A DNA stretch of 64,000 bases. It comes from an uncultured Gammaproteobacteria bacterium (GTDB taxonomy: Bacteria; Patescibacteriota; Microgenomatia; Daviesbacterales; UBA10151). Of this stretch, positions 10,656 through 59,336 are shown in pieces (position 1 is the first letter of the stretch; each line of letters opens with the position of its first letter). A program made the translations under genes and the position numbers. The stretch spans positions 11,758-75,757 of the forward strand of contig CAYOOO010000003.1 in assembly GCA_964405655.1 (NCBI GenBank). Direction: 5' to 3'. Below the pieces are notes generated by a model. It saw only the letters and a program-made list of their open reading frames with translations. It searched no databases and had not been told where the DNA came from.

Positions 10656-11038
10656 ACAATCAAACTGAAAAAAGAGATTTTGGTCAAAACCTTAAAAACA
10701 TTTACGACCGAACTCATCCTTTAGTTTTTATTTCAGTCACCATCACCTTAATTTCTATTATAATAATGCTTATCATTTGGGCTATTAATCTAAAGAGCTT
10801 GCCTCCTAAGATCCCTCTTTTTTACTCACTCCCCTGGGGCGAACAACAGCTTGTTTCTGCTTTACAGTTTGTTATTCTGCCCGCTATAGTAATATTGATT
10901 GGGCTTATTAATTTGATAATTTCGCTGCTTTTACATCCATCTCAACTGATAGTTAAAATCCTACTTCATATCACCACAGCCATTGTGGCGCTCCTTACAC
11001 TAGTTACTACTTGGAATATTATTTATACTTTTATCTGA
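10652..11038 (+). CDS. Small polytopic membrane protein (128 aa), translationally coupled (ATGA overlap) to the GT2 synthase
   Basis: Three or four TM helices. Start overlaps the upstream stop by 4 nt. Confidence 0.4.
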   Translation: MNNQTEKRDFGQNLKNIYDRTHPLVFISVTITLISIIIMLIIWAINLKSLPPKIPLFYSLPWGEQQLVSALQFVILPAIVILIGLINLIISLLLHPSQLIVKILLHITTAIVALLTLVTTWNIIYTFI

Positions 11039-11069
11039 GATTACTCAGCTTAAACTTAAATTTGGGCTA

Positions 11070-12158: not shown

Positions 12159-13036
12159 AAAATTTTGCTCTCTTTGCCGGGTTAATCTTCTCGGGACAAC
12201 TGACTAACCCGCTTTCCCAAACACTAGTTTTCAATGCCTTTTTAATCTTTTGCGGAGCAGCGTCCGCTACCTATCTTCTAAACGATATTTTTGATATTGA
12301 AAGAGATCGGTTACATCCATTTAAGAATAAACGCCCGATTGCAGCCGGTCTAATCTCTGTGCCTCAAGCTATTGCCATTGCACTAGGGTTGATACTACTG
12401 ATTCTACCTTTTTCTTACCGACTATCCCCAGCTTTCTTCCTAGCTGTAATGATCTATCTAATATTACAATTGTCTTATTCATTTTACCTAAAGTCAGTTA
12501 TCTTGCTTGACGTTATGGCAATCGCTGCTGGGTTTGTCTTAAGAATCTATGCTGGGGTTTGGGTAATCGATGCTCACTTAAATGTTTGGTTTTTATTAAC
12601 AGTTATCTCATTTGCTCTCTTCTTGGCTATTGGAAAAAGAAGGTCAGAGTTAACTTTGCTTCAAGCCCAAGCTTCAAAACACAGAGAAACTTTACTTCAT
12701 TACCCTGAAAATCTTTTAGACATTTTGACTAGTATGTTCGCCAACTCAACCTGGCTCTCCTATGCTTTTTTTGCTTTTCTTCAACCACCAATCTCAGCTA
12801 GAAGCAGCTTTACAGATCTTTTAGATAGCTTCTCTCTACCTTTTGCCAAAGCTAAATACTTAATGGCAACTGTCCCCTTAGTAATTTATGGAGTGATGAG
12901 ATACCTTTATATCATTTATGAGAAAAAAGAGGGTGAGTCACCTGAGCGGGTTTTACTAACTGATAAGCCTCTACTACTAACTGTCATACTTTGGCTATTA
13001 ATGGTTGTTGGAATAATCTATTACTTAGGCGCTTAA
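12104..13036 (+). CDS. UbiA-family prenyltransferase, decaprenyl-phosphate phosphoribosyltransferase (DPPR synthase)-like
   Basis: N-terminal RPRQWIKNFALFAG signature of the DPPR-synthase subfamily, NDIFDIERDR aspartate-rich motif, polytopic membrane. The 55-nt overlap with the upstream gene suggests start ambiguity. Confidence 0.6.
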   Translation: MVKFLWALIRAVRPRQWIKNFALFAGLIFSGQLTNPLSQTLVFNAFLIFCGAASATYLLNDIFDIERDRLHPFKNKRPIAAGLISVPQAIAIALGLILLILPFSYRLSPAFFLAVMIYLILQLSYSFYLKSVILLDVMAIAAGFVLRIYAGVWVIDAHLNVWFLLTVISFALFLAIGKRRSELTLLQAQASKHRETLLHYPENLLDILTSMFANSTWLSYAFFAFLQPPISARSSFTDLLDSFSLPFAKAKYLMATVPLVIYGVMRYLYIIYEKKEGESPERVLLTDKPLLLTVILWLLMVVGIIYYLGA

Positions 13037-13054
13037 GTGAAAATAATATTATTA

Positions 13055-13071
13055 CCCACACCCGGTGTGGG
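13055..13071. terminator. GC-rich hairpin CCCACAC-CCG-GTGTGGG between convergent genes (putative bidirectional terminator)
   Basis: 7-bp GC-rich stem flanked by A/T-rich sequence. Shares the CACAYCCGGTGTG core with the hairpin at 2282-2300. Confidence 0.35.
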
Positions 13072-13083
13072 TTAGCTAGACAC

Positions 13084-13908
13084 CTAGGGATTTTTCTTCT
13101 CGGTATAAACGCTAGAAACGTAACCTTCTTTGCCATCAGATAATCTAACCCTGTTCCAATTTGGAATCTCCTCAAGCAAAGTTAAAGTCTCCCCGCTGTT
13201 AACACGAGCTATCTCTTGAGCATTAGTTGAAGGAGAGCTGCGGACTCTTAGGAACCCAGTTGGGGTAGACTTAACTATCACCTGCGCAGTTTGTGAGATG
13301 GGGATAGTTGGGTTTTTGCTCAAATCTGGCTCTGAAATTGCCAGATCAACATTTAAAGTTAAATTAAAACCGTCAATCACTGTTGCTCTGATACTTCTTT
13401 TTAAGTAACCATCTTTTGAAATAATAAATTGATGCTCAGCAGAGGGTAAATCTTTTATTGACAGCGGTGTTCGGCCATAAGATTTACCATTGGCTGTAAC
13501 TTCTGCAGCTGATGGCTGGGAGACCACTGTGACTGCAGCCCCTTTACTGAGGGTAATTACTTCTCCAGAAGAAGCAGCTTTGGTTGAGGCCAGTTCTCTA
13601 TTGACTACAGTCAAAGTGCCATTATTCAAATCGACATATCCTTGCCAAAAAGCTTTAGCTGAAGAGGTAGCCTCAGTGGTTGGTTCAACTTTAACTAAAT
13701 ACTCACCTTGAGTTAAATCCTCATTTAAGTAAGGAGTAGTCCCTACTTCTTTATTATTTAGGTAAACTTTAGCTTTATCATTAACAGTTACCCTAACACC
13801 CGCTCTGGTCTTTATACCTAAAGTTTTGATTAGTGGCTCATAACCAAACCTTAGAAGTAGGGCAATTATACTTAAAAAAGCTAATAAACCAAGCAGAGCT
13901 TTCTTCAT
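13084..13908 (-). CDS. Membrane-anchored protein with two PEGA-like domains and a C-terminal bacterial SH3 (SH3b) domain
   Basis: N-terminal TM helix; C-terminus GFLRVRSSPSTNAQEIARVNSGETLTLLEEIPNWNRVRLSDGKEGYVSSVY is a canonical SH3_3 fold signature. Confidence 0.6.
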   Translation of the reverse strand: MKKALLGLLAFLSIIALLLRFGYEPLIKTLGIKTRAGVRVTVNDKAKVYLNNKEVGTTPYLNEDLTQGEYLVKVEPTTEATSSAKAFWQGYVDLNNGTLTVVNRELASTKAASSGEVITLSKGAAVTVVSQPSAAEVTANGKSYGRTPLSIKDLPSAEHQFIISKDGYLKRSIRATVIDGFNLTLNVDLAISEPDLSKNPTIPISQTAQVIVKSTPTGFLRVRSSPSTNAQEIARVNSGETLTLLEEIPNWNRVRLSDGKEGYVSSVYTEKKNP

Positions 13909-14220
13909 GGGTACTATATTATATTACGCCCATAAGGGGTCCAGGCAAGGTTTAAGTTCTCTTCAGATCAAGACTGAAGAAGGTTCAAAAAACCCCTCCC
14001 AAATTTGAATCAGCCTACCCTTTAATTTGACTGGGGCCAAACTTTCTGTTAGAATATGCATTTGTCCTGCCTTAATGGCAGGATTTTAATGTTAAAAGGA
14101 CAGCTATCACTGTTCCTGCTTGCATTGATTATAAATTCGTTGCAGGCGGGTCTGCCCAAAATTCATTTTCCCAAAAAAATCATTTCAAAAAAGCTTATCC
14201 ACAGTAAGTTTTTTTTAAAA

Positions 14221-14802
14221 ATGAAGCTTTCTTCTAAAATCGCTTTGGGGGTTATTTGTTTACTCTTTTTTCTAGATTATCAACCAGTTTTAGGTATTCC
14301 ACCTATTAGAAAAGCAGTGGTCAGAGCCCAAGCCGAGCAATCGCAAACTATTAATCCTCAGGAAAATCCAATTGTTTTCCAGCTACCCCACCCAGGTTAT
14401 CTAAGCACTCCATTCTCTTCTTATCATCCTGGTATTGATATGGCGACTGGTTTAGGTATGCCAATTAAGCCAATTGCCAAAGGAGAGGTTATTGAAGAAG
14501 GTTATAATTTTTGGGGGTTAGGATTAATGGTGGTTATTAAGCACGACCAAGGCTACATCTCAACTTATGGACATCTTGGCAAAATATATGTCAAGAAAGG
14601 TCAGGTTGTTGATGTTAGCAATTATATCGGCGAGGTTGGCTTAACCGGACATACATCAGGACCCCATACTCATTTAGAGATAACCAAAGATAGCAAAAAG
14701 GTTGATCCAGTGGCGCTGCTACCTAAAATCCGGGAAATACCTACAGAGGCTGATTTTATACCAGTAACTGCCAAAGGCGGTCCAATCTCTATTAGTCAGT
14801 AA
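14221..14802 (+). CDS. M23-family (LytM) peptidoglycan endopeptidase
   Basis: HPGIDMA (HxxxD) and GHTSGPHTHLEI (HxH) zinc-binding motifs. Start placed at the Met preceding the hydrophobic anchor MKLSSKIALGVICLLFF (ORF track starts at 14056). Confidence 0.7.
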   Translation: MKLSSKIALGVICLLFFLDYQPVLGIPPIRKAVVRAQAEQSQTINPQENPIVFQLPHPGYLSTPFSSYHPGIDMATGLGMPIKPIAKGEVIEEGYNFWGLGLMVVIKHDQGYISTYGHLGKIYVKKGQVVDVSNYIGEVGLTGHTSGPHTHLEITKDSKKVDPVALLPKIREIPTEADFIPVTAKGGPISISQ

Positions 14803-40767: not shown

Positions 40768-43722
40768 CTAGTTAATTTGTTTAAATTTAACTAAGAAAGA
40801 TCTATCTTTTGATAAATCTGTTGAGATGTGAATCTCTTGAGGTCGAAAAGAACTTGAGTTTTTTTGGGCAGACTCTACAGTAATATTAATTGGGAAGGTT
40901 AAAGTCCACTCAAATGGATCCTTCTCTGTTCCTGGTTGTTTAATTACATCCAACCTATAGAGATTTTCCTTATTCATAAATTGTGTTGGTTTATCTAAGT
41001 TATAATCTAATACTAAGTTTTTTTGTTCTTTTGGTTGAAGGGTAATTAAAACTGAAAAGCCAGTCCGGCCAAAGTCTGAAAAACTGGACATTTGGGTAGT
41101 AATATCATTTTCTCCAAAAACAGCCTTTTGAATTTTTGCTCCTAGGGGTAGATAGATCTTAAACCTATTTTTATAAGGACCAGCTGGAAAAGCTTCTGAA
41201 GGGCTATTGTTTTTGTAGCTTATTGTTAGTTTATGGCTGATTTGACCTTCTTTACCAACCGTAGTCTCAAGCGAGTATTTCCTTTCAAGATAATAGTTAG
41301 ATTTGTTGGCACCCATATTTGACTCATTAGTTGACAGAAAGTCTGAGGTCTGCCCCTGACTAGCAGCTACTGCCCGGGGCATTACCCCTGCCCAGTTTTG
41401 AGCGATAGCATAGGAAAAGAGCTCCTGATCTGATAGATAAATTAACAGGTGTTTTTGTTCTAAAGAATCAGACAGAGATTGGATGATGCTTGGCCAGTTC
41501 TGCTTTGATAGATAAAACACCTTATTAAAAAGCTGGGTTTGTAGGGCTATTAAGAAGCTGCGTTTAGCCTGTGATCCAGGGAAAAAATTGACTTCAGCAT
41601 AGCTAATGACCTTTTGAAATAAATTATCGGCGTTAATTTTTTCTCCGTAATCAGATAGATCCAAACCACCCACTGCACTGATAAGCTTTGACGAGGCTGT
41701 CAAATCCATGGCGATAACCCCGTTAACTATCTCACCTGATGATTCTTTTTTATATAAAAATTCAGCTAACCTGGCTGAGGTGGGAAAATCTGGGTCAAAG
41801 TTAGCATCTCTTAAAAAGAGTCTGTTATGACCCATATCACTCTTAAACTCGGGTGGTGGCTCTATAACATCTTTGAGTTGACCATCAAGATTATAGATAT
41901 CATCAACCTTAATATTTACTATCCTGCCATTTTGAAAGTCGAGTCTGCCATAAGAACCAATAAAACCGCCGGTTGCTCGAAGCTCTAAGTTGTTTTGAAG
42001 TAAAACCAAATAGCTTTTTTTACCATCAACTGCTGTAATTTGGGGTATTAAATAGCTTGCTGCTGTCGCCTTTTCTACCAAATTAGAGTAGAAATCGAGT
42101 TTGGTTGACAAGTCTCTCACTCTTTTGTCTAAACCAAACGGCAAAGACTTTAAAAGACTACTATCTTCTAGACTAGCTTTGACTTTGGCTATTTTGAGAG
42201 AGGCTATTCCCAGTTCAGTCTGAGCTTTTTGATATAACGGTTTAGGATCTTCTGCTACCTCGCCTGAGATGATTTTAGAGGCTTGATAGAGTGACTGGGT
42301 ACCTCGCGTAGCATGATCAACTCCTCTAATCCCCTCCTCAGCTATAGCCAATATATTTTCCATTCCCTCAATCTCCTGGTTAAATAGCTTTAGACGCTTG
42401 AGTATAGCTAAAGAATTTGTTATCTCTTTTAGCTCGCCAAGCGATTTAAGAGCTGCCTGAATCTTTTGCTCTGCCCCTTTAAAGTTACCATGGCTAATAT
42501 CTAAAGCTGATGCCTTAAGGTTATTTCTGATATTTAAGGCCCCAAATCCAAGTTGAAAAATTGGAAAAATTAATCCATAGAAAATCAGAGCTAAAACTAC
42601 AAAGTAGGCTAAACTACTTTTAAGCCGAGTCAGAATCCTTTTGACTCTCCCCTGTCTTATGTCTTTTTTTTGTGTAAATCTTTTATCTGAACTGGCAGCT
42701 TTAGCCTCTTCATCTGTTTCTTCAGATTGTGACTGCTCTAAAACTTCACCCGGTTGATTAAAAGTCCATTTTTTAACATTTTTTTGCCAAATATCTTCCT
42801 CAATTTCTGGAACATGAATATTATTATCCTTAAAATAGGCAATAGTTCTTTTGAGTGATTGGATTAGACTAACTGAGGGTATCCAAGATAACTCCTTAAT
42901 AGTTCTTAAAAGATTAGGCGTTGACCAAGGCGGCAGTTCAGTTGGTTTAAATCCCTTCAGCTCATACCAAACTGGGTCTAGTAAAATCTGTTTAATCTCT
43001 GCAACTTTGATAGGCTGAGGGTTTGTACCATCATAGATCTTATGAGCAGTCGATCCTGAAAAAATAGACTTAACTACCAACTTAGCTGCATCCTCTATAT
43101 ATAGGGCCCGACTGCCAAAATCCAAAGAGGTTGTTTCATCATGCAAACTACCAAGCAGTGAGGCTTGAATAAGCCTGATGACTGGATCGTTTATTCTAAA
43201 ATGCATTCTTGGTCCAAATAGGCAGGCTAATCTGACTATCCGGGAGTTTAACTTATGATATTTTGAATATTTAGCAAAATAGATCTCTGCTGTTTTAAGC
43301 GCCTTGAGATCAGCAGAAACTTTATTATCATAAAGCAGGATTGAGGAAGTCAAAACAACTTTCGGTTTGAAATCTTTGATAAACTTTAAAAAATTAGCAA
43401 GTCCTGTTGTAAATAAAGGATGTGGGTTTTGGTTATCAGCTGCAAAAATTGCATAATCTAACCTTGGCAGCTCAATTGATATTCTTTCAGTAATTGATCT
43501 GTTGACAAGGTGGAATCTTTTATCCCTGATAACTTTTTCTAAGTTAATTTTTTGGCCAGTTGAAAAGTCATCTATACCAATTACTTGAATTCCACTCTCA
43601 ATTAAAATCTCAGCTATATAAGAACCTAGAAAACCGGCAACCCCCACAACTAAAGCAATCGGAGTGTTTCGCGAAACTAAAATTCTATTGTTCTCAATGC
43701 TATTTACGTTTATTTCCCCCAT
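40768..43722 (-). CDS. Fusion protein: N-terminal NAD-dependent epimerase/dehydratase-like Rossmann domain + TM segment + C-terminal DUF4012 domain
   Basis: VVGVAGFLGSYIAE (GxxGxxG) at the N-terminus; TM helix FVVLALIFYGLIFPIFQLGFGAL; C-terminal ...YLVLLQNNLELRATGGFIGSYGRLDF... typical of DUF4012. Confidence 0.55.
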   Translation of the reverse strand: MGEINVNSIENNRILVSRNTPIALVVGVAGFLGSYIAEILIESGIQVIGIDDFSTGQKINLEKVIRDKRFHLVNRSITERISIELPRLDYAIFAADNQNPHPLFTTGLANFLKFIKDFKPKVVLTSSILLYDNKVSADLKALKTAEIYFAKYSKYHKLNSRIVRLACLFGPRMHFRINDPVIRLIQASLLGSLHDETTSLDFGSRALYIEDAAKLVVKSIFSGSTAHKIYDGTNPQPIKVAEIKQILLDPVWYELKGFKPTELPPWSTPNLLRTIKELSWIPSVSLIQSLKRTIAYFKDNNIHVPEIEEDIWQKNVKKWTFNQPGEVLEQSQSEETDEEAKAASSDKRFTQKKDIRQGRVKRILTRLKSSLAYFVVLALIFYGLIFPIFQLGFGALNIRNNLKASALDISHGNFKGAEQKIQAALKSLGELKEITNSLAILKRLKLFNQEIEGMENILAIAEEGIRGVDHATRGTQSLYQASKIISGEVAEDPKPLYQKAQTELGIASLKIAKVKASLEDSSLLKSLPFGLDKRVRDLSTKLDFYSNLVEKATAASYLIPQITAVDGKKSYLVLLQNNLELRATGGFIGSYGRLDFQNGRIVNIKVDDIYNLDGQLKDVIEPPPEFKSDMGHNRLFLRDANFDPDFPTSARLAEFLYKKESSGEIVNGVIAMDLTASSKLISAVGGLDLSDYGEKINADNLFQKVISYAEVNFFPGSQAKRSFLIALQTQLFNKVFYLSKQNWPSIIQSLSDSLEQKHLLIYLSDQELFSYAIAQNWAGVMPRAVAASQGQTSDFLSTNESNMGANKSNYYLERKYSLETTVGKEGQISHKLTISYKNNSPSEAFPAGPYKNRFKIYLPLGAKIQKAVFGENDITTQMSSFSDFGRTGFSVLITLQPKEQKNLVLDYNLDKPTQFMNKENLYRLDVIKQPGTEKDPFEWTLTFPINITVESAQKNSSSFRPQEIHISTDLSKDRSFLVKFKQIN

Positions 43723-43799: not shown

Positions 43800-44312
43800 T
43801 CAGTAGTTTTTAAAATAGGACCTTACTAAGGCAATTATAATACCTATAAACACGCCAGTAATAAACCCGATTAATAATCCAAGATAAACATTAGCATTTT
43901 CTTCTGAGTAATAATCATTCCCTATTTTTGAAACCTTATAATTTTCAACCAGGTACTTACTAGCCTGTCCATTTAAATATTTGGCTGAATCTAAATCAGC
44001 TCCTTTTGTCTCAATTTGAATAGCTAAGGGCCCTGGTTTAAAGATGGTTGTTTCGCCCTTCTTTTTTTGACTATTAATCTCAGGAGATAAGTTTTGTGAT
44101 CTGAGAATTGTTACTGCTTGATCAGTCAGGCTAATTTTCTCAGAGACACTACTTTCTTGATAGTTCATTTGCCAGAGCGAAGAGACTTTCTTATTTACTT
44201 GCTTACTAGATTGGTAAAATAATCCTGCAGCTGAAAAAAGCAAGACAGCTACAAAAATTATTAGAAAATTTTTTCGGAAAAAATTCAGATAAAGTCTAGA
44301 TTCTTTCATCAA
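43800..44312 (-). CDS. Wzz-like (polysaccharide co-polymerase-like) bitopic membrane protein
   Basis: N- and C-terminal TM helices flanking a hydrophilic loop, located in an envelope polysaccharide cluster. Assignment by topology only. Confidence 0.35.
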   Translation of the reverse strand: MMKESRLYLNFFRKNFLIIFVAVLLFSAAGLFYQSSKQVNKKVSSLWQMNYQESSVSEKISLTDQAVTILRSQNLSPEINSQKKKGETTIFKPGPLAIQIETKGADLDSAKYLNGQASKYLVENYKVSKIGNDYYSEENANVYLGLLIGFITGVFIGIIIALVRSYFKNY

Positions 44313-44709
44313 GTGCCTTATTAGCCAGTCGATCAGCTAAAAAATTCTTGGACCTTGGTACATGCTTATAAAAAACCATCCCTAGCTCAAACTCTAAGAT
44401 TTTAATTTTTTGGTAGATCTCCTTTAGCTTGAGATTTTTAATTTTGAAGTTTCCCTTTAACTGTTCTGTTATCAGTTTAGAATCAGATAAGACTTGGACC
44501 TGATGAGGAGCTTTATGAACATAATGATCTTTTAAATATTTCAAGGAAAACAAAACTGCAGTGTATTCTGCAATATTATTAGTAGCAAGGCCAATTTTTT
44601 TACTTTCCTGATGTAACATGACACCAGAAACTGACTTGATAATATAACCATACGATGAAGGACCTGGATTACCTCTTGATGCACCGTCTGTATTGATAAC
44701 TACTTCCAT
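44296..44709 (-). CDS. rnhA: Ribonuclease HI
   Basis: INTDGASRGNPGPSSYGYII...E...DS...ADRLAN catalytic DEDD pattern of RNase H type 1. Confidence 0.8.
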   Translation of the reverse strand: MEVVINTDGASRGNPGPSSYGYIIKSVSGVMLHQESKKIGLATNNIAEYTAVLFSLKYLKDHYVHKAPHQVQVLSDSKLITEQLKGNFKIKNLKLKEIYQKIKILEFELGMVFYKHVPRSKNFLADRLANKALDERI

Positions 44710-51170: not shown

Positions 51171-51635
51171 ATGGATAAGATTAATTGGGTAGTTTTAGGA
51201 TTCGTAGCTTTAGCTTTAGTTATTGCATATCTTTTAGGAAGACTTCATTCAAAATCTAAAAGTAGCCTCAGTGATATCCCCCAAGATTTCATTGATCTTT
51301 ATAGGCAAGTTGATGGGTTACCTTTAAGAATTCTTCAAACAATTCAAGGTTCGATTAATCCGCAGAAAGGGAAGATGGCAGAACTTTTAACCTATGCTGA
51401 ACTTAGGTATGATTATGATCGGATAATTCCTTTGGGTTGGCCAATAGACTTTATTGGTATTAAAAATAATGAGCGGATCGATTTCATTGAGGTAAAATCA
51501 GGTAATAATTACATCTTGACAGATCAGGAGAAAGAGATTAAAAACCTAATATTAACAGGAAGAGTTAGTTTTAGATTAATTAAAGTCAGCGAAGAAGAGG
51601 TTCATAGGTTTGTGGCTGCCAGAAAGGAAGGGTAA
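51171..51635 (+). CDS. Membrane-anchored PD-(D/E)xK-like nuclease-fold protein (Hjc/restriction-endonuclease-like), hypothetical
   Basis: N-terminal TM helix; ...ELLTYAELRYDYDRIIPLGWPIDFIGIKNNERIDFIEVKSG... fits the E...D...E-x-K nuclease motif pattern. Confidence 0.4.
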   Translation: MDKINWVVLGFVALALVIAYLLGRLHSKSKSSLSDIPQDFIDLYRQVDGLPLRILQTIQGSINPQKGKMAELLTYAELRYDYDRIIPLGWPIDFIGIKNNERIDFIEVKSGNNYILTDQEKEIKNLILTGRVSFRLIKVSEEEVHRFVAARKEG

Positions 51636-51640
51636 AGTTT

Positions 51641-52759
51641 GTGAAGGTAACACTGCTTCAGCAGGATTTAATAGCTCCCTTGCAATCAGTTTCTCGCTCA
51701 GTTGGGGTTAAAAGCTCTTTACCGGTTTTAGCAAATATTTTAATCAGAACAGAAGATGGTAACTTAAAATTATCAGCTACCAATTTAGAAGTCGGAGTTA
51801 TCAAAACAGTTAAGGCTCAGGTTATTGAGGAAGGAGAGATAACTGTTCCAGCTAGGACGCTGCTAGAAATAGTCAGCTCATTAACCAGTGCCAAACTGAC
51901 TTTTGAAACCTCCTCAGATCAGCTCAAGATCTCAACTGATAACTTTAATGCAATCCTAAACGGGATCTCAGCCAGTGAATTTCCGACTATCCCGATAGTT
52001 AGTGAAAATACTGTTCATATAGAGGGTCAAATTTTAAAATCAACTATCCCGCAAATTACCTTTGCGGCAGCTAGTGATGAAGGTAGGCCGATTCTAACTG
52101 GTATTCTAACAGAGATAAAAAAAGACAGTTTGGAGCTAGTGGCAACTGATGGTTTTAGATTAGCTCATAAAACAGCCAAGATTGAGGGAGATGCAGACAA
52201 AAACCTTCGCTGCCTGATTCCCCGTCGGACATTTGAGGAAGTGGTTAGGCTAATAGCAGAGGAGATTGGGGAAGAGCAGAAAGAGAAGGTAGAGATCTCA
52301 ATGGCGGACAGTCAAAATCAGATGATCTTTAAGATAGGCCAAACCTTAGTCTCAACACGTTTAATTGAAGGCCAGTTTCCAGCCTGGGAAAAGATCATCC
52401 CAACTAAATTTGAAAATAGAACGATTATTGACAGGACAGAGCTTTTAAAAGCAGTCAAGCTTGCTTCGGTTTTTGCCAAGGGTGATGCTAATATCGTTAA
52501 AATTGCCACATCAGATGGTAAGCTGAAATTAACTTCAGAGGCTAAAGAGTTAGGGGGGCAGGAGAATGAGGTGGAGGCTCAAACAGAGGGGGTAGAACTT
52601 GTTGTTGCTTTTAACTCCAAATTTTTAATAGATGCTTTATCTGCCTGTCAAAGCAGTCAAATTAGAATTGAATTTTCTGGCAGCCTTTCACCAGCACTAA
52701 TTAAGCCTCTGGGAGAAGAGGGTTTGGAGTATGTAGTTATGCCAATCCGCCTAAATTAA
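51641..52759 (+). CDS. dnaN: DNA polymerase III beta sliding clamp (GTG start)
   Basis: Three-domain beta-clamp pattern (MKVTLLQQDLIAPLQSVSRSV...), follows dnaA and the oriC region. Confidence 0.85.
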   Translation: MKVTLLQQDLIAPLQSVSRSVGVKSSLPVLANILIRTEDGNLKLSATNLEVGVIKTVKAQVIEEGEITVPARTLLEIVSSLTSAKLTFETSSDQLKISTDNFNAILNGISASEFPTIPIVSENTVHIEGQILKSTIPQITFAAASDEGRPILTGILTEIKKDSLELVATDGFRLAHKTAKIEGDADKNLRCLIPRRTFEEVVRLIAEEIGEEQKEKVEISMADSQNQMIFKIGQTLVSTRLIEGQFPAWEKIIPTKFENRTIIDRTELLKAVKLASVFAKGDANIVKIATSDGKLKLTSEAKELGGQENEVEAQTEGVELVVAFNSKFLIDALSACQSSQIRIEFSGSLSPALIKPLGEEGLEYVVMPIRLN

Positions 52760-53202
52760 GCACCCCGATATTGAATGGTTTTGAAGTGAAAGATCTTTTC
52801 TACCTCAAGCCTTTTTTTACCATCAAATTTGGTATCAGGCAAGATCTTTAGGGTATAACCCTGACCAAGACTGTAGGGATTAATTGGAGTGATTTTAGCT
52901 GTTTTTCGGTCATCGCTTAACTCAACTTTAATTTTTGCTTCTGGCTCAACCACCAGCTTTAGTTCAGCACTGCCTTCCAGGGGTAGATTAAAACTAACAC
53001 TAATGGTTTGAGTGGGTAAGATTGTGGCATCCTCCAGGGGTGATGGATCAGTTGAGACAACTGCAGTATTTTGGGTGACCTTATCAACAATAGGAGCAGT
53101 TTTAGGTGGGGTATAAAAACCAAATCTAAAAATAGCAATCAAGGCTGCACCAATGATCGCTACTGCAATCATAATCTTTTGTTTTAAAGATAAGTTGGTC
53201 AT
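52756..53202 (-). CDS. Membrane-anchored Ig-like (SbsA/Big-like) small protein, paralog A
   Basis: N-terminal TM helix + about 100-aa beta-rich domain. 4-nt overlap with the upstream paralog. Confidence 0.45.
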   Translation of the reverse strand: MTNLSLKQKIMIAVAIIGAALIAIFRFGFYTPPKTAPIVDKVTQNTAVVSTDPSPLEDATILPTQTISVSFNLPLEGSAELKLVVEPEAKIKVELSDDRKTAKITPINPYSLGQGYTLKILPDTKFDGKKRLEVEKIFHFKTIQYRGA

Positions 53203-53654
53203 GTTCCAGAATAAGGAGCTGTTCTAAAATCCATTATAATATTTTCAGGAATTTTTTCTCCATCGGTTCCTGTTAAAACACCATCAATAGTTAACTTGTA
53301 TTTAGTTTCAAACTTCCAGATCTTTTTAGGGGCTATTTGAATAGTCTGACCATCAGGCTCAAGCATAAGATCGAAATCTGTTTCAGGTTCGATTGATACT
53401 TTAATTGTTCTTTCGTCTACTGGTTTACTAAATTTGAAGGTAATTTTATCAGAGACGTTAACCAAGGATTTGTCAAAGCTTGTACTTGTTACACTAAGAT
53501 TTGTTTGCGGGCTAGTACCAGCAGGCTGTTTAGGAGCAGAGTTTTGTGTATTTTTTGGCAGTAAGGCCTTACTAAATGTAAGCACAATTAACAATATTAA
53601 TAAGACTATTATTAAAATTACAGTCTTAGGGTTTAAATATTTCATTGTGTACAC
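53199..53654 (-). CDS. Membrane-anchored Ig-like small protein, paralog B
   Basis: Same architecture as 52756..53202. 13-nt overlap with the giant hydrolase gene. Confidence 0.45.
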   Translation of the reverse strand: MYTMKYLNPKTVILIIVLLILLIVLTFSKALLPKNTQNSAPKQPAGTSPQTNLSVTSTSFDKSLVNVSDKITFKFSKPVDERTIKVSIEPETDFDLMLEPDGQTIQIAPKKIWKFETKYKLTIDGVLTGTDGEKIPENIIMDFRTAPYSGT

Positions 53655-56600
53655 ATTCCCAAATCACGATCAGGGTATTTCCATCCCGGATCATAAAGCT
53701 GTAGATTATTGGCTGTTATCGGTTCAGCGATATTTAGCCCAACTGTAACATGAATATGGTAACCTGGGCCACTGGCCGATGAAATTTGAGCGATAGGTTT
53801 GGTAGTATCAACGCCTTGCCCAGGAGTAAAGGATGGTTCGGCAATAGCGTGAATAAAGTGCATAGTCCATTTGCCTTGGGCTGTTTGCTCAGACTGAAAG
53901 ACCCTCAAGGTTGCACCGATGCCGTCGGGAAAGTCATTTATAAAGTTCCACTTCAAAACTTGGCCATTAATTGTTGGGATATAAACATTTTCCCCAACTT
54001 TTCCACCAATATCAATAGATTTAGCTGTCCTTTTAAGATTGCCTCCTGAGATATAGTTTTTGTCATCGCAAAGTCCAGGATAAGCAGCACGGTATTTGGG
54101 GCTACAATGGCCCCCAATGTTATTTTCTCCTGTTGAACTATTTGACCCTAAAGCACAAACACCATCAAATCCAGACCAGGTAGCCTCAGATCCATACGAT
54201 GAGCAAATAATCTTACCTCCTGGAATTGGGCAAGTAGCTTTACCCAAAACCACCGAGGGTGGAGCACTACAAACCGGTAGTAGACCTGCGGATCCTAATC
54301 CTGATGATGGTAAGCCGCCTCCGCCGCCTGGCTTACATGGTTGACCACCAAGAAAATTTGAAATTCCATTACAATATCCTAAAGCAATATCATCTGTATA
54401 AGCATAGAGATCGCTATAGTCAGATTTTGTCTTCATATAATTTTTCATTATTATTCCAGGCATTTTTCTCTTACGCTGGATAGATGGGACCTTTCCTCCA
54501 TAATAGCCGCCGGTCTTTGCACCCTGAGGTCCCAGAACATAGTACTCCAAGCCTTCTTGGTCATCTGTTCCTTGATCTGTACCTACTTTTGTACTCTCAT
54601 CAACTTTAAAGGTAATTCCGCTGACCTTGTTCTTTAGCTGCTTTGTAACTGCTTGTCCCATCGTTTCACCTAAACGTTTACTCTCTGAAGAGAAGGGTCC
54701 TTTCTCAGAATAGATCGGCCCAAAAGAATTTGTTTGGACTCCAGCATCAGCATGGATTGAGATAAAGGCTGCTGTATTATTTGAATTGGCAAAATCAACC
54801 CTTTTTTGTAAATTTTCATAGTAATCAACCTCCTCACAACTACCGTCACTATTAGGGTTATAAACTTTAGCATCAATGCCATTTTTTTGTAAAAGACTTG
54901 CCAATTTTTTAGCCTGTTCGATATTTAGTTTATTTTCAGCTGCTTTATTTTCTTTATACTTATCATTTGAACAGTGACCAGGATCTAAAACAACAATAGG
55001 TGGTTTTGTCACAGTTCTTTGAAGCAAGCTAGAACTTACTTGACCAGCGCTACAGCTTGAAATACTTTCGAACAGGTCATCACCATAGTTGTATTGATCT
55101 GCGTCACCATAAATCAATCCTCCATAATAGCTTCTGGCAAGCTGTGAGACTTTAGTTTTATCATTTGTCCATTGGGGATTCCAGCTACTAGCACCCATCT
55201 TAGCTAAGATAAAACCACCAGCCATGGTAATATTTTTCCTTGGATCACAGTAATCTTTAAGTGTTAGGTTATTAACACTTTTACCAATCAGCTCAGCTCC
55301 TTTTTGAACTGCATCTTTAGCATGTCCATTTGTACCAGGTGGTTGAATCTGCATAACCCCAAGCGCATTATTTGAGCTAACTGGGCAAACTGCTTTTTCA
55401 GTCCCCGGGATCTTAAGAGATTTTATCTTAGCAATCTCTGAGGCAGAGTTACTATCTGTCAAAACTACATTCGGGATACTACGGTTTTCAATATAGCTAA
55501 TATCTTCGTCAGTATAATCTGAAATAGTATAGGTACCGGTTGTAGATTCAACTCTGGCAATTCCTGCTAAAACTGATGCTGGAACAGTTGACTTTTGTGA
55601 GGCTTCTTGGAAATAGCTTAATAGCTTGCTGCTTTGGTAAGGGAGAGAGGCTCTGGCGCCCTGGTCACTTTTAGTAAATTTACAAGCTGCCAATGTGCCT
55701 GTTTGAGCAGCAACTGGTTGGCTAGATTGTAGAATTGGTGTACCTTTAGGATCACATGCGTTTACCTCTACCGCCAGTTCTACAATATCATTATAGGAGT
55801 GAATACAGTTGTTGTTTTGAGAGACATTATCATTTTGCTCAGCTGCCTCAAGCAAAGGTGATCTTGATCCAAAAACTTCCGCAAAGTCATCAAGTGTTTG
55901 TAAAGGCAGAGTTATTGGCTGATCTTTATAGATGTCATAATTTGAGAGTGTTTGACCTTGGTAAGAGTATTGAGGCGTTTTATTATTTCTATTCTCAGAA
56001 TAAAATTTACAGGAGGGACTACTTGCGTCTCTGCTGACAAGACATTTGGCAGGGCTCACCCCTGGTCCGTCACTTAAACCTAATGCGCACTCAACCTGAT
56101 CGTTGAAGTTATTTGGTACAAAAACACAGCCTAATGATTCACCAAATTTTGATTCTGATCTCCAGTAAGCCAGACCAATAACCGGGTTAATGCCTTTTGA
56201 CTCAGCTTTTTCTTTTATATAGTTAGCCCGCCTGATAAATTCATCTTTAGATGAATACTTTCCTTGAGCTTCAGGCCAAAACCTTTCAACAAATTTGGTC
56301 ATCTGAGCATCAGTTAAATCGCCGTAAGGATAAGAAGAGCTGAATTTATTAGTAAAAAGCGGCACAGTTGGATCAAAATATCTACATGTTTCTGGAGTAG
56401 TTTTTCTGTTGGCTGCAATCGCATCCAAAGATGGGCAACCTCCTGAACCAGTGCTGGCTCCTCCAGCTCCTGCTGGAAAACAAGCTTGAGTGGTAGGAGG
56501 AAGTTGGCCAGGAATTGGTAATAGAGCAGTGTTTTTGATTTGGTCCCAAAAGATAAAAATTCCTATGGTGACAATTAAAACTATTCCTATTAGCCAGCCT

Positions 56601-57472
56601 AAAGATCCTAAAGCTGCAAAAATTCCTCCAGCCCGGGCAGCAAGAGAAGCTGCAGCTGGGATTCCTCTGCCTAGGGCAGGAAGCCCTCTTCCCAGGGATG
56701 ACAGTGGTATTCTTGGTATTCCTCTGGCAGCTCCACCTGGGCTAGGTACACCACCTCCGCTCCCACTTGGTGAAGTAATGGCTGGAGAGGCAGGTGCAGA
56801 GGGGGTGGATCCTGCACTAACAGGTCCTGCTCTGGGGATCCTTTCACCAAGCTGTTCAGCTATACTTCTGGGTTGAGTATATTCAGCTGGTCTTTCAATC
56901 AATACTGTCATCTGTCTTTGGGTAGGGGGGGGTTGGGGTCCTGTCGGGTAAACTGTCTCAGCTGGTTGGGTTCCAGCTTGAGGAGGTTGTGGAGGTTGGG
57001 GTGGTTGTTTGGCTGGAAAAGGAGGTTGTTGCATAGGAATTCCTTTAGCAAGAGGTAAGACTGGGGCAGTAGCTACAGCAGCTTTTCTCTTATCTTCGCC
57101 TTCTTTCTTTTCAGTGCCTTTTTCCTCCTCGGTAGCCTTTTGTTTAGCCTCTTGCTGTTTAATCTCCTCGTTTAAAATTTCCCATTCGCTTTTCTCGCCC
57201 GGGGTAATGGCAAAGAAGAAACTGAAGAAGGAGTTGAGTTGATCTGTGTCTTTAGCAACAGCTAAGTAATTAATACCAGGAAACTTATCTGAGTACTTTT
57301 TAGGATTTCTGTCAATGATTGCCTTAATGTAGTCTTTAACAGCCTTGCCCTTAAACCCATTCTTAATATAGAACTCTTTGCTATTGTGTAGCCCTTGAGA
57401 AGGAGCAGCAGAGAAGGCCCAGGCAAAGTCGCGAATATCAGTTAAGGAGATAGACTTATCTGGGGCAGCCAT
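53642..57472 (-). CDS. Giant (1276 aa) membrane-anchored multi-domain peptidoglycan hydrolase: Pro-rich N-region, TM helix, lysozyme-like/SLT lytic transglycosylase domain, Amidase_3 (MurNAc-L-Ala amidase) domain, C-terminal M23-like domain (VirB1/PrgK-like)
   Basis: PQPPQPPQ linker; TM IFAALGSLGWLIGIVLIVTIGIFIFW; SLT motifs VLAGIARVESTTGTY and ALGVMQIQP; amidase_3 motifs VVLDPGHCSNDK and AAFISIHADAG; C-terminal GPGYHIHVTVG resembling the M23 HxH. Confidence 0.7.
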   Translation of the reverse strand: MAAPDKSISLTDIRDFAWAFSAAPSQGLHNSKEFYIKNGFKGKAVKDYIKAIIDRNPKKYSDKFPGINYLAVAKDTDQLNSFFSFFFAITPGEKSEWEILNEEIKQQEAKQKATEEEKGTEKKEGEDKRKAAVATAPVLPLAKGIPMQQPPFPAKQPPQPPQPPQAGTQPAETVYPTGPQPPPTQRQMTVLIERPAEYTQPRSIAEQLGERIPRAGPVSAGSTPSAPASPAITSPSGSGGGVPSPGGAARGIPRIPLSSLGRGLPALGRGIPAAASLAARAGGIFAALGSLGWLIGIVLIVTIGIFIFWDQIKNTALLPIPGQLPPTTQACFPAGAGGASTGSGGCPSLDAIAANRKTTPETCRYFDPTVPLFTNKFSSSYPYGDLTDAQMTKFVERFWPEAQGKYSSKDEFIRRANYIKEKAESKGINPVIGLAYWRSESKFGESLGCVFVPNNFNDQVECALGLSDGPGVSPAKCLVSRDASSPSCKFYSENRNNKTPQYSYQGQTLSNYDIYKDQPITLPLQTLDDFAEVFGSRSPLLEAAEQNDNVSQNNNCIHSYNDIVELAVEVNACDPKGTPILQSSQPVAAQTGTLAACKFTKSDQGARASLPYQSSKLLSYFQEASQKSTVPASVLAGIARVESTTGTYTISDYTDEDISYIENRSIPNVVLTDSNSASEIAKIKSLKIPGTEKAVCPVSSNNALGVMQIQPPGTNGHAKDAVQKGAELIGKSVNNLTLKDYCDPRKNITMAGGFILAKMGASSWNPQWTNDKTKVSQLARSYYGGLIYGDADQYNYGDDLFESISSCSAGQVSSSLLQRTVTKPPIVVLDPGHCSNDKYKENKAAENKLNIEQAKKLASLLQKNGIDAKVYNPNSDGSCEEVDYYENLQKRVDFANSNNTAAFISIHADAGVQTNSFGPIYSEKGPFSSESKRLGETMGQAVTKQLKNKVSGITFKVDESTKVGTDQGTDDQEGLEYYVLGPQGAKTGGYYGGKVPSIQRKRKMPGIIMKNYMKTKSDYSDLYAYTDDIALGYCNGISNFLGGQPCKPGGGGGLPSSGLGSAGLLPVCSAPPSVVLGKATCPIPGGKIICSSYGSEATWSGFDGVCALGSNSSTGENNIGGHCSPKYRAAYPGLCDDKNYISGGNLKRTAKSIDIGGKVGENVYIPTINGQVLKWNFINDFPDGIGATLRVFQSEQTAQGKWTMHFIHAIAEPSFTPGQGVDTTKPIAQISSASGPGYHIHVTVGLNIAEPITANNLQLYDPGWKYPDRDLGMCTQ

Positions 57473-57521: not shown

Positions 57522-59336
57522 CTAAAAACTAGCCTGGGCATTTTGAGTAGCCCTAATCAACTCCTGAGGATTAGAGGTGATTAGCTGGTGTTCCTCAGGA
57601 GAACCCACTACTTGCATGGCCACATGGGTTGGTCCAGCAAAAAAAAGGCCTTGGCCAACCCCTGCTGATAAGAGTAGTCTTTTTTCTCCCTCAGACAAAT
57701 TAAATACTTCAGCTACTTTATCAATGGCTGATGGTGATTGTTTGAGTAGTATTTGAATAGAAGAGTTAGAGATAATCTCTTTGCCTCGGTCAGTGGCTAA
57801 GAAATCTTCAACATCTTGAGTTATAGTAGTGACTCCTAAATAATATTTCCTGGCTCTCTTGGCAATATCGACTAAAAACTCACCTGAGTCCTGATTTCTC
57901 ATCATATACCAAGCTTCATCAACAATTAAGAGACGCTTTGCCAAACTTGTTCTAACTTTGGTCCAGATATAGTCTAGGATTAGATACATAGCCAGAGGTC
58001 TAAGTTGGTCAGCCAGGTCCCGGACTGAAAAAACCACTAACTGACTATTAAGACTAATGTTGGAAGGAGCGGAAAAGATTCCGGCTAAAGAGCCTTTGAT
58101 GAATCTTTCTAGTCTAAACGAAAGTTCTTGAGCTGTTTTATCCTCCATCCCGACTAAAACCTTATAAAGGTCTTCCATTAAAGGAGGAGGCAGTTTTTGA
58201 GTTTTAGGATCAGCTGTAATACCTTTAAGGCGGTAAGTTGAGGTTAATGCCCTGTCTAAAGTAGCTGATTGGGCAGCATCGAGATTTCCCAGTACCAGTC
58301 TTAAAAATCCTGTTAAAGTCAGGATTTTTCTTCCCAGTTCGTTTTCCCCGGATTCTGAAACCTGGGAAAGATCAAAAGGGTTAATTTTAACAGGTGAGTC
58401 TGAGGAAAAATTTATATACTCTCCCCCCACAGCCTGGGTCAGTTTTAGATATTCTTGCTCAGGGTCGATGACTATAACCTGGGTATCAAACATTAAAGAG
58501 CGCAGTGCCTCAAGTTTAACAAAATAGGATTTTCCAGCACCTGATTTGGCAAAGACCACTGAGTTGGCATTTTCCAGAGTGAACCTGTCAAAGATAATTA
58601 AAGAATCGTTATGTTGATTGATCCCATACATAATTCCCTCATTAGCAGTCAGCTCTGAGGTGGTAAAAGGAAAGGTGGTGGCAAGTGAGGTGGTGTCCAT
58701 GTTGTGGTTTAGCTCGAGTATGTCTTGACCTAGCGCTAAGGTAGAGAGGAAACCTTCTTCCATCTGCAGAGTAGTTTGGCGGGCAGTAATCGAAATTGAG
58801 CCTAGGGTTGACTCAACCAGCTTGGAAGCATTTTCCAGTTCTTCTTTGGTTTGGGAGGGTACAGTCAGATAAAGTCCTAGTTTAAAAAATCTCTCTGCGC
58901 CTTTAACCAGCTGTTCCTGTAATCCTCTGGCATCATCAAGTGCTACCTGGACAGCTGGATTGACTGCCCGGCCTCGCTCTAAATCAGTTTGAATAGTAGC
59001 CTCCATCTCAGCGATCTTTCTTTTTAGATCATCTAAAACATTTTTTGAAGTAGAAGGGTAGATAAACATCGAGATATTTAACGTATGTTCAAAGTTAATC
59101 AGAGGCTCGAGCCAATTAGGTTCAACATATCTTGGATAATTTGAGACAAAGAAAGATTTGTAGTACATATTGCCAATCCGCAAATGACCAAAATCAATTT
59201 CAATTTCCGACGGTGCAATCACATCAGCCAAGCTAAGCTGTCCAGCCAGCCCGCCAGGCAACATACCAGTAACAGCTTTGGGGGCAGTGGTACTAGTTAG
59301 TTTTTGATCTTTAGATTTTTTACTAAACAGTCCCAT
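57522..59336 (-). CDS. VirB4/TrbE/CagE-family type IV secretion ATPase, C-terminal ATPase portion
   Basis: Walker A AKSGAGKSYFVK, Walker B LLIVDEAWYMM; N-terminal region IDFGHLRIGNMYYKSFFVSNYPRYVEPNWL matches VirB4 mid-N-domain. Confidence 0.75.
   Translation of the reverse strand: MGLFSKKSKDQKLTSTTAPKAVTGMLPGGLAGQLSLADVIAPSEIEIDFGHLRIGNMYYKSFFVSNYPRYVEPNWLEPLINFEHTLNISMFIYPSTSKNVLDDLKRKIAEMEATIQTDLERGRAVNPAVQVALDDARGLQEQLVKGAERFFKLGLYLTVPSQTKEELENASKLVESTLGSISITARQTTLQMEEGFLSTLALGQDILELNHNMDTTSLATTFPFTTSELTANEGIMYGINQHNDSLIIFDRFTLENANSVVFAKSGAGKSYFVKLEALRSLMFDTQVIVIDPEQEYLKLTQAVGGEYINFSSDSPVKINPFDLSQVSESGENELGRKILTLTGFLRLVLGNLDAAQSATLDRALTSTYRLKGITADPKTQKLPPPLMEDLYKVLVGMEDKTAQELSFRLERFIKGSLAGIFSAPSNISLNSQLVVFSVRDLADQLRPLAMYLILDYIWTKVRTSLAKRLLIVDEAWYMMRNQDSGEFLVDIAKRARKYYLGVTTITQDVEDFLATDRGKEIISNSSIQILLKQSPSAIDKVAEVFNLSEGEKRLLLSAGVGQGLFFAGPTHVAMQVVGSPEEHQLITSNPQELIRATQNAQASF

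Follow-up and report, generated by a model that had tools for sequence, protein, structure and literature searches.

The window analysed here is a stretch of 64,000 nucleotides from contig CAYOOO010000003.1 (assembly GCA_964405655.1) of the Daviesbacteria lineage, and the gene under study, located at 53642..57472 on its minus strand, encodes a membrane-anchored multi-domain peptidoglycan hydrolase of 1276 amino acids (aa) in an uninterrupted open reading frame (ORF) with an ATG start. Unless a strand is given, the features described below also lie on the minus strand. The hydrolase gene is the fourth of a co-directional, tightly packed six-gene cluster, in which it is preceded by genes for PrgI-like, TrsD-like and VirB4 proteins and followed by two genes for proteins with a transmembrane (TM) helix and a Big_5 domain. 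The protein is identical over all 1276 residues to entry P0001 of the searched protein collection, and 1274 of 1276 residues (99.8%) are identical in NCBI MBI2021464.1 (P0151), which derives from another assembly (66.6-kb contig) and is annotated as 'N-acetylmuramoyl-L-alanine amidase' of a Candidatus Daviesbacteria bacterium. An initial annotation, made from the nucleotide sequence of the window, had already recognized a multi-domain peptidoglycan hydrolase, and the SLT and Amidase_3 profiles together with the M23-fold C-terminus agree with that description; it did not mention the secretion-system context, on which the functional interpretation of the hydrolase hinges.

No signal peptide is present, and the Cys-rich ectodomain of ~950 aa with its four hydrolase-type modules is preceded by a long N-terminal region and a membrane anchor. 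The N-terminal head (residues 1-104; 57161..57472) is predicted to be cytoplasmic and has no detectable homologue: Pfam and PHROG scans placed nothing on it, and phmmer and jackhmmer searches with the first ~110 residues against 130 family N-regions returned only the self-match. A shared N-terminal domain was considered when a jackhmmer search started from the whole N-region of another member recruited the hydrolase at E 1e-21, but the match was gone once the search was limited to the first 110-130 residues; it is attributed to low-complexity, pre-TM and TM segments, and no shared N-terminal domain is claimed. The head passes into a Cys-free, low-complexity cytoplasmic linker (residues 105-282; 56627..57160), which is Glu/Lys-rich at 105-130, Pro/Gln-rich at 145-185 and Gly/Ala/Ser/Pro/Arg-rich at ~205-282, the Pro/Gln stretch containing KQPPQPPQPPQ (residues 155-165) encoded by a 9-nt tandem repeat at 56978-57008. 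The single TM helix (residues ~283-309, GIFAALGSLGWLIGIVLIVTIGIFIFW; 56546..56626) is the sole strong hydrophobic segment of the protein (Kyte-Doolittle 2.57) and has Arg on its N-side. All 24 Cys residues lie after residue 330 and none before it, and the predicted topology is single-pass with the N-terminus inside and the C-terminus outside.

The ATG-initiated ORF, the hydropathy, the KQPPQPPQPPQ repeat and the Gly/Ala/Ser-rich stretch all match the initial description of a 1276-aa ORF with a single TM helix behind a Pro-rich N-region of ~280 aa, and the antisense ORF at 56490..56876 (plus strand) is, as had been stated, a Pro/Gly/Ala-rich shadow of the low-complexity region. The long N-region ahead of the TM helix had been regarded as an oddity, which it is not, since the same layout is published for PrgK (PMC11323569) and is common among the relatives of the hydrolase. 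When a library of 1.84 billion cluster representatives was searched exhaustively with the ectodomain by HMMER, 361 relatives were retrieved at E<=1e-3, 103 of them at E<=1e-30, and in the best 150 of the 361, to which all architecture and TM counts given here refer, one TM helix stands ahead of the first catalytic domain in 134 cases, with a median N-region of 316 aa. The possibility that the N-terminal extension is a gene-call artefact was ruled out by these family-wide long N-regions. An Rfam scan of the window gave no match, and a promoter and terminator scan revealed no enrichment.

For profile searches the query was cut into four modules, namely D1 (340-600), SLT (600-815), AMI (816-1045) and the C-terminal domain, CTD (1065-1276). 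Residues 1-320, 340-600 and 1065-1276 remained unmatched in Pfam, NCBIfam, PHROGs and PDB sequences even at E<=10, and profiles built for D1 and CTD had no match when compared with the PDB, with Pfam member by member and with PHROGs. NCBIfam and direct PDB sequence searches supported the amidase alone. Of the domains proposed at the outset, SLT and Amidase_3 were therefore those supported by Pfam hidden Markov models (HMMs), while profiles backed neither the M23 assignment nor one of the two lysozyme-like regions.

The SLT module, a family-1 lytic transglycosylase-like domain (residues 612-815; 55028..55639; Pfam PF01464), was matched at 620-751 in the scan of the whole protein, just above the cut-off (21.7 versus 21.3 bits), and with 28.5 bits (E 1.2e-6) when the fragment 597-811 was searched. 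The match covers model positions 2-72 of 117 and is divided by an insert, a variable segment of ~55 aa between the ES and GxMQ motifs. The motifs of the family are present as catalytic E642-S643, G705-V-M-Q708, Y783-G784 and Y796, and among 109 family sequences E642, G705, Q708, G784 and Y796 are each 100% conserved, so that both the proposed SLT region and its catalytic Glu are substantiated. The domain may carry out either lytic transglycosylation or hydrolysis; the 'SLT' domain of PrgK turned out to be a muramidase (PMC11323569).

The Amidase_3 domain (residues 822-1045; 54338..55009; PF01520, with PDB matches 4rn7, 4bin, 8c2o and 1jwq) was matched by Pfam at 827-956 with 66.9 bits (cut-off 27, E 3.1e-18). 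Its zinc ligands H833, E846 and H907 are invariant in a 13-sequence alignment (A3) and align with the ligands of 4rn7 and AmiC, confirming both the domain call and the H/E/H ligand set named in the initial annotation. The family profile aligns 'MPGIIxE' with 'MPAVLLE' of CwlV and 'MPAILIE' of 4rn7, which is the catalytic-Glu strand. At this position the window allele carries Lys1010 (codon AAA, 54443..54445), where the alignment has Glu in 15 of 15 homologues and in MBI2021464.1. Thus, although the domain belongs to the family, the catalytic Glu of the 'PavLvE' strand is missing from this allele. The only differences from MBI2021464.1 are K1001 in place of Gln and K1010 in place of Glu (54443-54472), nine codons apart and both produced by changes to A; they represent either strain polymorphism or assembly error. 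Unless K1010 is such an error, the amidase module of the window allele is probably inactive or catalytically impaired. The damaged site of this allele is hence the amidase catalytic Glu rather than the M23-like site, a point that had not been noted before.

D1 (residues 340-600; 55673..56455) is an unclassified, Cys-rich, all-helical domain, examined through an alignment of 30 sequences (A2), an AlphaFold model and Foldseek. Eight Cys residues are invariant in A2, and so is E440 within the motif NP..L.YW(K/R)SES.F. It resembles the Glu-Ser pair typical of c-type lysozymes and of family-1 transglycosylases. The AlphaFold model is helical (predicted local distance difference test, pLDDT, 84.6), with E440 at the C-terminal end of the predicted helix 430-441. 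Foldseek against the PDB gave a best E of ~1, below significance, and 31 of the 50 weak matches listed are lytic transglycosylases (MltD, MltE, Slt, MltF, LtgA); against a viral library the best E was ~0.1 with probabilities up to 0.77, and many SLT, transglycosylase and lysozyme proteins appeared among the weak matches. In an hhalign comparison of D1 with the family SLT profile (P=0.015), the lone aligned segment superposed the catalytic-Glu helices and placed E440 on E642. Altogether, D1 is probably a very divergent lysozyme-like or lytic transglycosylase-like domain. The initial call of a first lysozyme-like region therefore stands without profile support, and what speaks for it is the weak fold similarity and the invariant E440 in WxSES.

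The CTD (residues 1067-1276; 53645..54274) is likewise unclassified in sequence terms and was characterized from an alignment of 26 sequences (A1), AlphaFold and Foldseek. PF01551 gave no match at E<=10 for the CTD or for any of the 26 family members, and the family profile found no M23 chain in the PDB. The AlphaFold model built from A1 reached a mean pLDDT of 91.8, and in the Foldseek search against the PDB ranks 1-48 were all M23/LytM-domain proteins, with one exception, the cyanophage pre-ejectosome protein 9k2v at rank 4. The best fold match was 8s3m (LysTt72, E 2.6e-5), for which a literature search yielded no publication, and further matches comprised StM23, EnvC, DipM, ShyA, LytU, zoocin A, LytM, lysostaphin, Csd1-3, the LytM domain of PrgK (8s0u) and the EnvC-AmiB complex 8c0j. 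Foldseek probabilities were 1.00 for ranks 1-31 and 0.94-1.00 down to rank 48, with target TM-scores of ~0.5-0.6 for isolated catalytic domains. The CTD is thus confidently modelled as an M23/LytM fold, and the proposed M23-like C-terminus, having failed the profile test, is rescued by this fold evidence. Compared with the M23/LytM family (lysostaphin, LytM, ShyA, LysTt72, StM23), the CTD shares the predicted fold, the motif x-I-D-[IV] followed by G-x-x-V-x-x-P-x-x-G, and the HxH motif, whereas it lacks a PF01551 match, has a conserved Ala in place of the HxxxD His and carries an additional Cys-rich subdomain.

The residues of the putative metal site were counted in the 70 CTD-like domain matches of the family, 67 of which cover the key positions. 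D1154 (in KSIDI), H1208 and H1241 are conserved in 67 of 67, H1122 (in GGHC) in 64 of 67 and H1239 in 62 of 67, and H1205 is variable. A1150, four residues before the Asp, occupies the position of the canonical HxxxD His; among the 66 domains with a residue there, 48 have Ala and none has His. In a first hhalign comparison with lysostaphin only the HxH half was aligned (probability 2.9%), and a permissive comparison with lysostaphin and LytM covered 113 columns (P 0.0013) and placed A1150 at the HxxxD His, D1154 at the Asp, and H1239 and H1241 at HxH; these comparisons are supportive only. The near-invariant H1122 lies 32 residues upstream in GGHC, inside the added Cys-rich N-terminal subdomain of ~70 aa. 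Six to seven Cys residues are conserved in the CTD, as is the C-terminal tail W-K-F-P-D-R-D-L-G-M-C.

The initial annotation was accurate in finding no evident first HxxxD and a retained GYHIHVTV, which correspond to A1150 and H1239-x-H1241, and against its suggestion of a degenerate active site stand five metal-binding or catalytic residues that are near-invariant in the 67 domains. The site is probably not degenerate, because four His and one Asp are near-invariant, a count equal to that of an active M23 enzyme. On the basis of conservation, the metal site would be functional with its first His moved 32 residues upstream into the Cys-rich subdomain; the zinc may be coordinated by H1122, from its new place, together with D1154 and H1241, and H1208 and H1239 are proposed as catalytic His residues.

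The same residues bear on the idea that the CTD is a regulatory pseudo-enzyme, a degenerate LytM domain that switches the Amidase_3 or SLT module on or holds it back, in the manner of EnvC, NlpD, DipM and the LytM domain of PrgK. The loss of the canonical HxxxD His at A1150 would fit such a role, as would the presence of EnvC, DipM, PrgK-LytM and the EnvC-AmiB complex 8c0j among the fold matches, and in PrgK the LytM and CHAP domains indeed lower SLT activity (PMC11323569). However, truly degenerate LytM domains lose the corresponding His and Asp residues (PMC11323569), whereas H1122, D1154, H1208, H1239 and H1241 are kept in 62-67 of 67 domains. The CTD also occurs frequently without an amidase to regulate (SLT-CTD in 29, D1-CTD in 5 and stand-alone CTD in 8 of the 150 relatives, besides further stand-alone CTD proteins), and the amidase itself, to judge from the alignments, carries no regulatory insertion of the AmiA/B/C type. 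A purely regulatory CTD is accordingly regarded as unlikely.

The modules are combined freely within the family. Apart from the SLT-CTD, D1-CTD and CTD-only proteins just mentioned, the 150 relatives comprise 70 with SLT only, 12 with D1 only, 8 with D1-SLT, 3 with D1-CTD-AMI, 2 with D1-SLT-CTD-AMI and 1 with AMI-SLT, the remaining combinations not being tabulated. The order D1-SLT-AMI-CTD belongs to the window protein alone, so that the domain order was rightly called unusual, although module shuffling as such is the family norm. A word-indexed protein search with the full-length query returned only the protein itself, as low-complexity words filled the candidates, and a query with the 200-aa C-terminus returned nothing; looking for contigs with the exact sequence of the protein likewise gave no match. 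With the CTD alignment as query, the same kind of search found only nine short stand-alone CTD proteins, all nameless. The stand-alone CTD proteins P0154-P0161 measure 199-280 aa, and for the two that were traced to their contigs, P0155 (1927-2724 of locus L010) and P0156, the gene occupies the equivalent place near the origin, with Big_5, dnaN and dnaA after it. A different deployment of the module is seen in locus L002 (CAZFYQ010000001.1), where a CTD copy with 40% identity occupies about residues 197-405 of a 1700-aa protein (9413-14515) with Big_13, GH53-like and CARDB domains, and where no similarity to the VirB4-cluster or dnaA/dnaN proteins of the window turned up across the 20.6-kb locus.

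The operon opens with a 400-aa PrgI-family (VirB3-like) protein carrying a C-terminal CarboxypepD_reg-like domain (60165..61367; Pfam PF12666, E 1.9e-7), followed by a 281-aa TrsD-like protein (59323..60168; NCBIfam TrsD, E 3e-10), which corresponds to the VirB4 N-terminal domain (VirB4_plasma model positions 102-292), and by the 604-aa C-terminal part of a VirB4-like secretion ATPase (57522..59336; NCBIfam conju_CD1110, E 6e-116; Pfam P-loop_TraG). The PrgI-like and TrsD-like genes overlap by 4 nt and the TrsD-like and VirB4 genes by 14 nt, and a gap of 49 nt separates VirB4 from the hydrolase gene. Downstream, the hydrolase stop is overlapped by 13 nt by the start of the gene at 53199..53654, whose 151-aa product has a Big_5 Ig-like domain behind an N-terminal TM helix and is kept in all syntenic loci, and this gene in turn is overlapped by 4 nt by the last operon gene, encoding a 148-aa TM-helix and Big_5 protein (52756..53202) convergent with dnaN. 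Beyond the operon lie the convergent dnaN, a Holliday-resolvase-like gene and dnaA, then rnpA, yidD and yidC. The secretion cluster sits at the chromosomal origin, as the adjoining dnaN, dnaA, rnpA, yidD and yidC indicate.

The division of VirB4 into a 281-aa TrsD-like ORF and a 604-aa ATPase ORF recurs in locus L001 (486-1400 and 1397-3217), and both parts are adjacent in L003/L004 by tblastn; because of this recurrence the split is a conserved trait and not a frameshift artefact. The VirB4 homologues of L003 (Ga0209515_10004344, 4617-8192) and L004 (JGI1358J11329_10001363, 2414-5989) additionally contain an in-frame insertion of ~620 aa directly after Walker A (GAGK|S...FVHN|SYLVK), which, with its LAGLIDADG-like motifs and a His-Asn end adjoining Ser, looks like a P-loop intein. 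The two Big_5 proteins, which come after the hydrolase in each syntenic locus, hold the position that PrgL, the VirB8-like partner of PrgK, has in pCF10, and speculatively they may replace VirB8, homologues of which are reported to be undetected in most Patescibacteria.

A scan of genome contigs gave two loci and one of metagenomes seven, a small sample in which synteny is consistent. The order PrgI-like, TrsD-like, VirB4, CTD-bearing hydrolase, Big_5, dnaN and dnaA is repeated whole in L001 and L003/L004; L006 begins inside VirB4, the short loci L005, L007, L009 and L010 contain only the end from the hydrolase to dnaN or dnaA, and all keep the same order over the part covered, as do the gene calls of the P0156 contig from the hydrolase to dnaA. 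Hydrolase genes follow VirB4 wherever the contig includes it (L001, L003/L004, L006), and in L010 the gene upstream of the CTD gene has no similarity to VirB4. Identity to the window ranges over 71-79% for VirB4 and 53-72% for DnaA. Within this fixed position the modules of the hydrolase vary: L001 has D1-CTD and, in a gene of its own, AMI-SLT; L003, L006 and L007 have SLT-CTD; and L010 and the P0156 contig have the CTD by itself. The possibility that the cluster is a recently integrated conjugative element was rejected, as relaxase and integrase were not seen and the dnaA/dnaN synteny is kept down to 53% DnaA identity.

This neighbourhood leads to the interpretation that the hydrolase is probably the dedicated wall enzyme of a chromosomal, conjugation-derived type IV secretion system resembling the mating-pair formation (MPF) class FATA, and a counterpart of PrgK, TraG (pIP501) and VirB1. 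This interpretation is favoured because PrgI, TrsD and VirB4 genes adjoin the hydrolase gene, the synteny is conserved and the architecture is PrgK-like. It also accords with published work that traces the type IV secretion systems of Patescibacteria back to the MPF-FATA conjugation class of monoderms and shows that they have no relaxases and often lie near dnaA/dnaN (Quiñonero-Coronel et al. 2025, PMC12102498). By analogy with the layout and partner binding of PrgK, the N-region would stay cytoplasmic and tether the hydrolase to the secretion machine, and the ectodomain would open a local breach in the peptidoglycan through three bond classes: glycan strands would be cut by SLT (E642) and probably also by D1 (E440), the MurNAc-L-Ala amide by Amidase_3 (H833, E846, H907), and peptide stems or cross-links by the M23-fold CTD. 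The breached wall may be that of the bacterium itself, that of a host cell, or both.

The conserved origin-proximal setting could also accommodate a housekeeping autolysin that serves growth or the separation of daughter cells and is linked to the secretion genes by position only. Amidase_3, M23/LytM and lytic transglycosylase domains are the classic cell-separation set, and as the whole dnaA/dnaN neighbourhood is conserved, adjacency alone is a weak sign of coupling. This explanation is nevertheless very unlikely, given the overlap and translational coupling with flanking genes of the virB4 cluster, the PrgI-VirB4-hydrolase order that matches prgI-prgJ-prgK, the PrgK-like intracellular domain and TM helix, which are untypical of division amidases, and an amidase that, according to the alignments, is of the short CwlV/4rn7 type without the regulatory-helix segment of AmiA/B/C-type enzymes.

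Several observations weigh against the assignment as a secretion-system wall enzyme. No homologues of VirB6, VirB8 or the coupling protein were recognized among the genes of the cluster, and the conserved synteny could partly mirror the origin-proximal gene order of the lineage instead of functional coupling. A tblastn search of the hydrolase against 72,556 plasmid records returned generic amidase matches only and none to hydrolases of the PrgK/TraG type; the corresponding search against 50,697 phage records also returned generic amidase matches only. At the level of the modules, the K1010 allele means that at least one of them may be non-functional, the assignment of D1 is built on concordant but sub-threshold signals, and the zinc-ligand role of H1122 is a proposal from conservation, with H1208 as the alternative third ligand.

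A further question is whose wall is attacked. The secretion system may present or deliver the ectodomain so that a host or prey bacterium has its wall digested and a conduit for uptake is opened, instead of or besides remodelling the own wall. Patescibacterial clusters are devoid of relaxase and coupling protein, for which a repurposed function has been suggested (PMC12102498, PMC10633639), and in Southlakia epibionticum, the only relative amenable to genetics, the secretion cluster is essential for epibiotic growth (Wang et al. 2023, PMC10633639), including the peptidase and lysozyme homologues encoded directly downstream of virB4 (PMC12102498). Three bond specificities in one chain, quick module shuffling and a fast-evolving N-terminal head are reminiscent of arms-race enzymes such as phage tail lysins, and phage lysins (8s3m, 9k2v) are among the top fold matches of the CTD. 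On the other hand, the TM helix anchors the protein in the membrane of the producer and a release site is not evident, Gram-positive conjugation hydrolases of the same layout act on the donor wall, and the lifestyle of Daviesbacteria is only presumed to be host-dependent, with target specificity not readable from sequence. A host-directed enzyme is therefore possible, although we incline to doubt it. The most far-reaching version is more tentative still: the virB4-adjacent slot of the Microgenomatia type might be a fast-shuffling 'wall demolition kit' against host peptidoglycan at the contact site, in which the CTD might found a new metallopeptidase family whose zinc ligand has migrated to the GGHC loop of a disulfide-rich subdomain and D1 might be a new lysozyme-like family.

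Other features of the window and of the related loci were recorded in passing. Between dnaA and dnaN the window encodes a 154-aa Endonuc_Holl-type protein related to archaeal Holliday-junction resolvases (51171-51635, plus strand), genes for ~150-aa proteins are conserved at this place in related loci, and Endonuc_Holl was recorded for L010 and the P0156 contig. At 40768-43722 lies the gene for a 984-aa protein with a short N-terminal NAD-epimerase fragment (~23-80) and DUF4012, adjoining Wzy_C and flippase-like polysaccharide-synthesis genes with which it may form an envelope polysaccharide cluster, and at 44296-44709 that for a 137-aa stand-alone protein of the RNase H/RVT_3 type. The records of L001 and L002, GTDB-representative metagenome-assembled genomes, are titled 'uncultured Gammaproteobacteria bacterium'; as DnaA, DnaN and VirB4 of L001 are 54-79% identical to those of the Daviesbacteria window, these titles look mislabelled.

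Surveys with the HMM profiles of the MPF components VirB1, TrsG and CD419 generally detected no virB4-linked homologues in the majority of patescibacterial classes; outside Paceibacteria, linkage of VirB1-type hydrolases to virB4 is not the general case, and the identity of the wall-opening enzyme was left open (PMC12102498). The hydrolase is probably the wall-breaching component that these surveys did not find for this group, filling the 'missing VirB1' slot in a lineage of the Microgenomatia type, and in the Daviesbacteria lineage concerned the slot would be taken by a PrgK-like anchored enzyme. HMM surveys would miss the hydrolase because D1 and the CTD escape current profile libraries, and the alignments A1 (CTD) and A2 (D1) provide the basis for new profiles with which genomes of the candidate phyla radiation (CPR) can be surveyed. 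What is new is the presence of two modules from families invisible to profile libraries, an M23-fold module with a conserved and apparently relocated first His, and module shuffling inside a fixed genomic slot; multi-domain conjugation hydrolases were already known, and no concept is overturned. The locus also supplies a candidate zinc-ligand relocation in the M23 fold and, at the catalytic position of the amidase, an apparently natural E-to-K exchange, and the hydrolase offers defined residues for mutation.

Comparison with characterized enzymes places the individual modules and the whole protein at different distances from known systems. Relative to Amidase_3 enzymes such as CwlV, CD27L and the 4rn7 type, the amidase module likewise possesses the H/E/H zinc ligands and is supported by Pfam and PDB matches, while it adds an insertion of ~20-25 aa before the catalytic-Glu strand and has Lys for Glu. 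For the protein as a whole the nearest parallel is PrgK of Enterococcus faecalis pCF10 (DELTA class), in which an intracellular domain at the N-terminus is joined through a TM helix (254-274) to an ectodomain of LytM, SLT and CHAP modules, and which interacts with PrgL (Sun et al. 2024, PMC11323569). Both genes come directly after a VirB4 homologue that follows a PrgI/VirB3-like gene, and both proteins have an intracellular N-domain of ~250-280 aa, one TM helix and a multi-module ectodomain including SLT-type and M23/LytM-fold domains. The order LytM-SLT-CHAP of PrgK contrasts with D1-SLT-Amidase_3-M23-like in the window hydrolase, which by Pfam has no CHAP domain and instead has Amidase_3. 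The LytM domain of PrgK is degenerate and metal-free and, together with CHAP, down-regulates the SLT domain (PMC11323569), whereas the M23-fold domain of the window hydrolase keeps the full conserved His/Asp set. In contrast to the pCF10 system, the system of the window is chromosomal, origin-adjacent and without a relaxase. What connects the hydrolase with PrgK is its layout and gene position, rather than a demonstrated common origin of the entire protein.

TraG (pIP501), TrsG (pGO1), CwlT (ICEBs1) and VirB1, which are needed for passage of the peptidoglycan layer, resemble the window hydrolase in being membrane- or envelope-associated, encoded in a virB4 cluster and composed of an SLT- or lysozyme-like domain and a peptidase domain (PMC12102498, PMC11323569). 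Different from these two-domain enzymes, in which an SLT or muramidase domain is joined to CHAP or NlpC/P60, the hydrolase from the Daviesbacteria lineage combines four modules, two of them unclassified, in one anchored chain.

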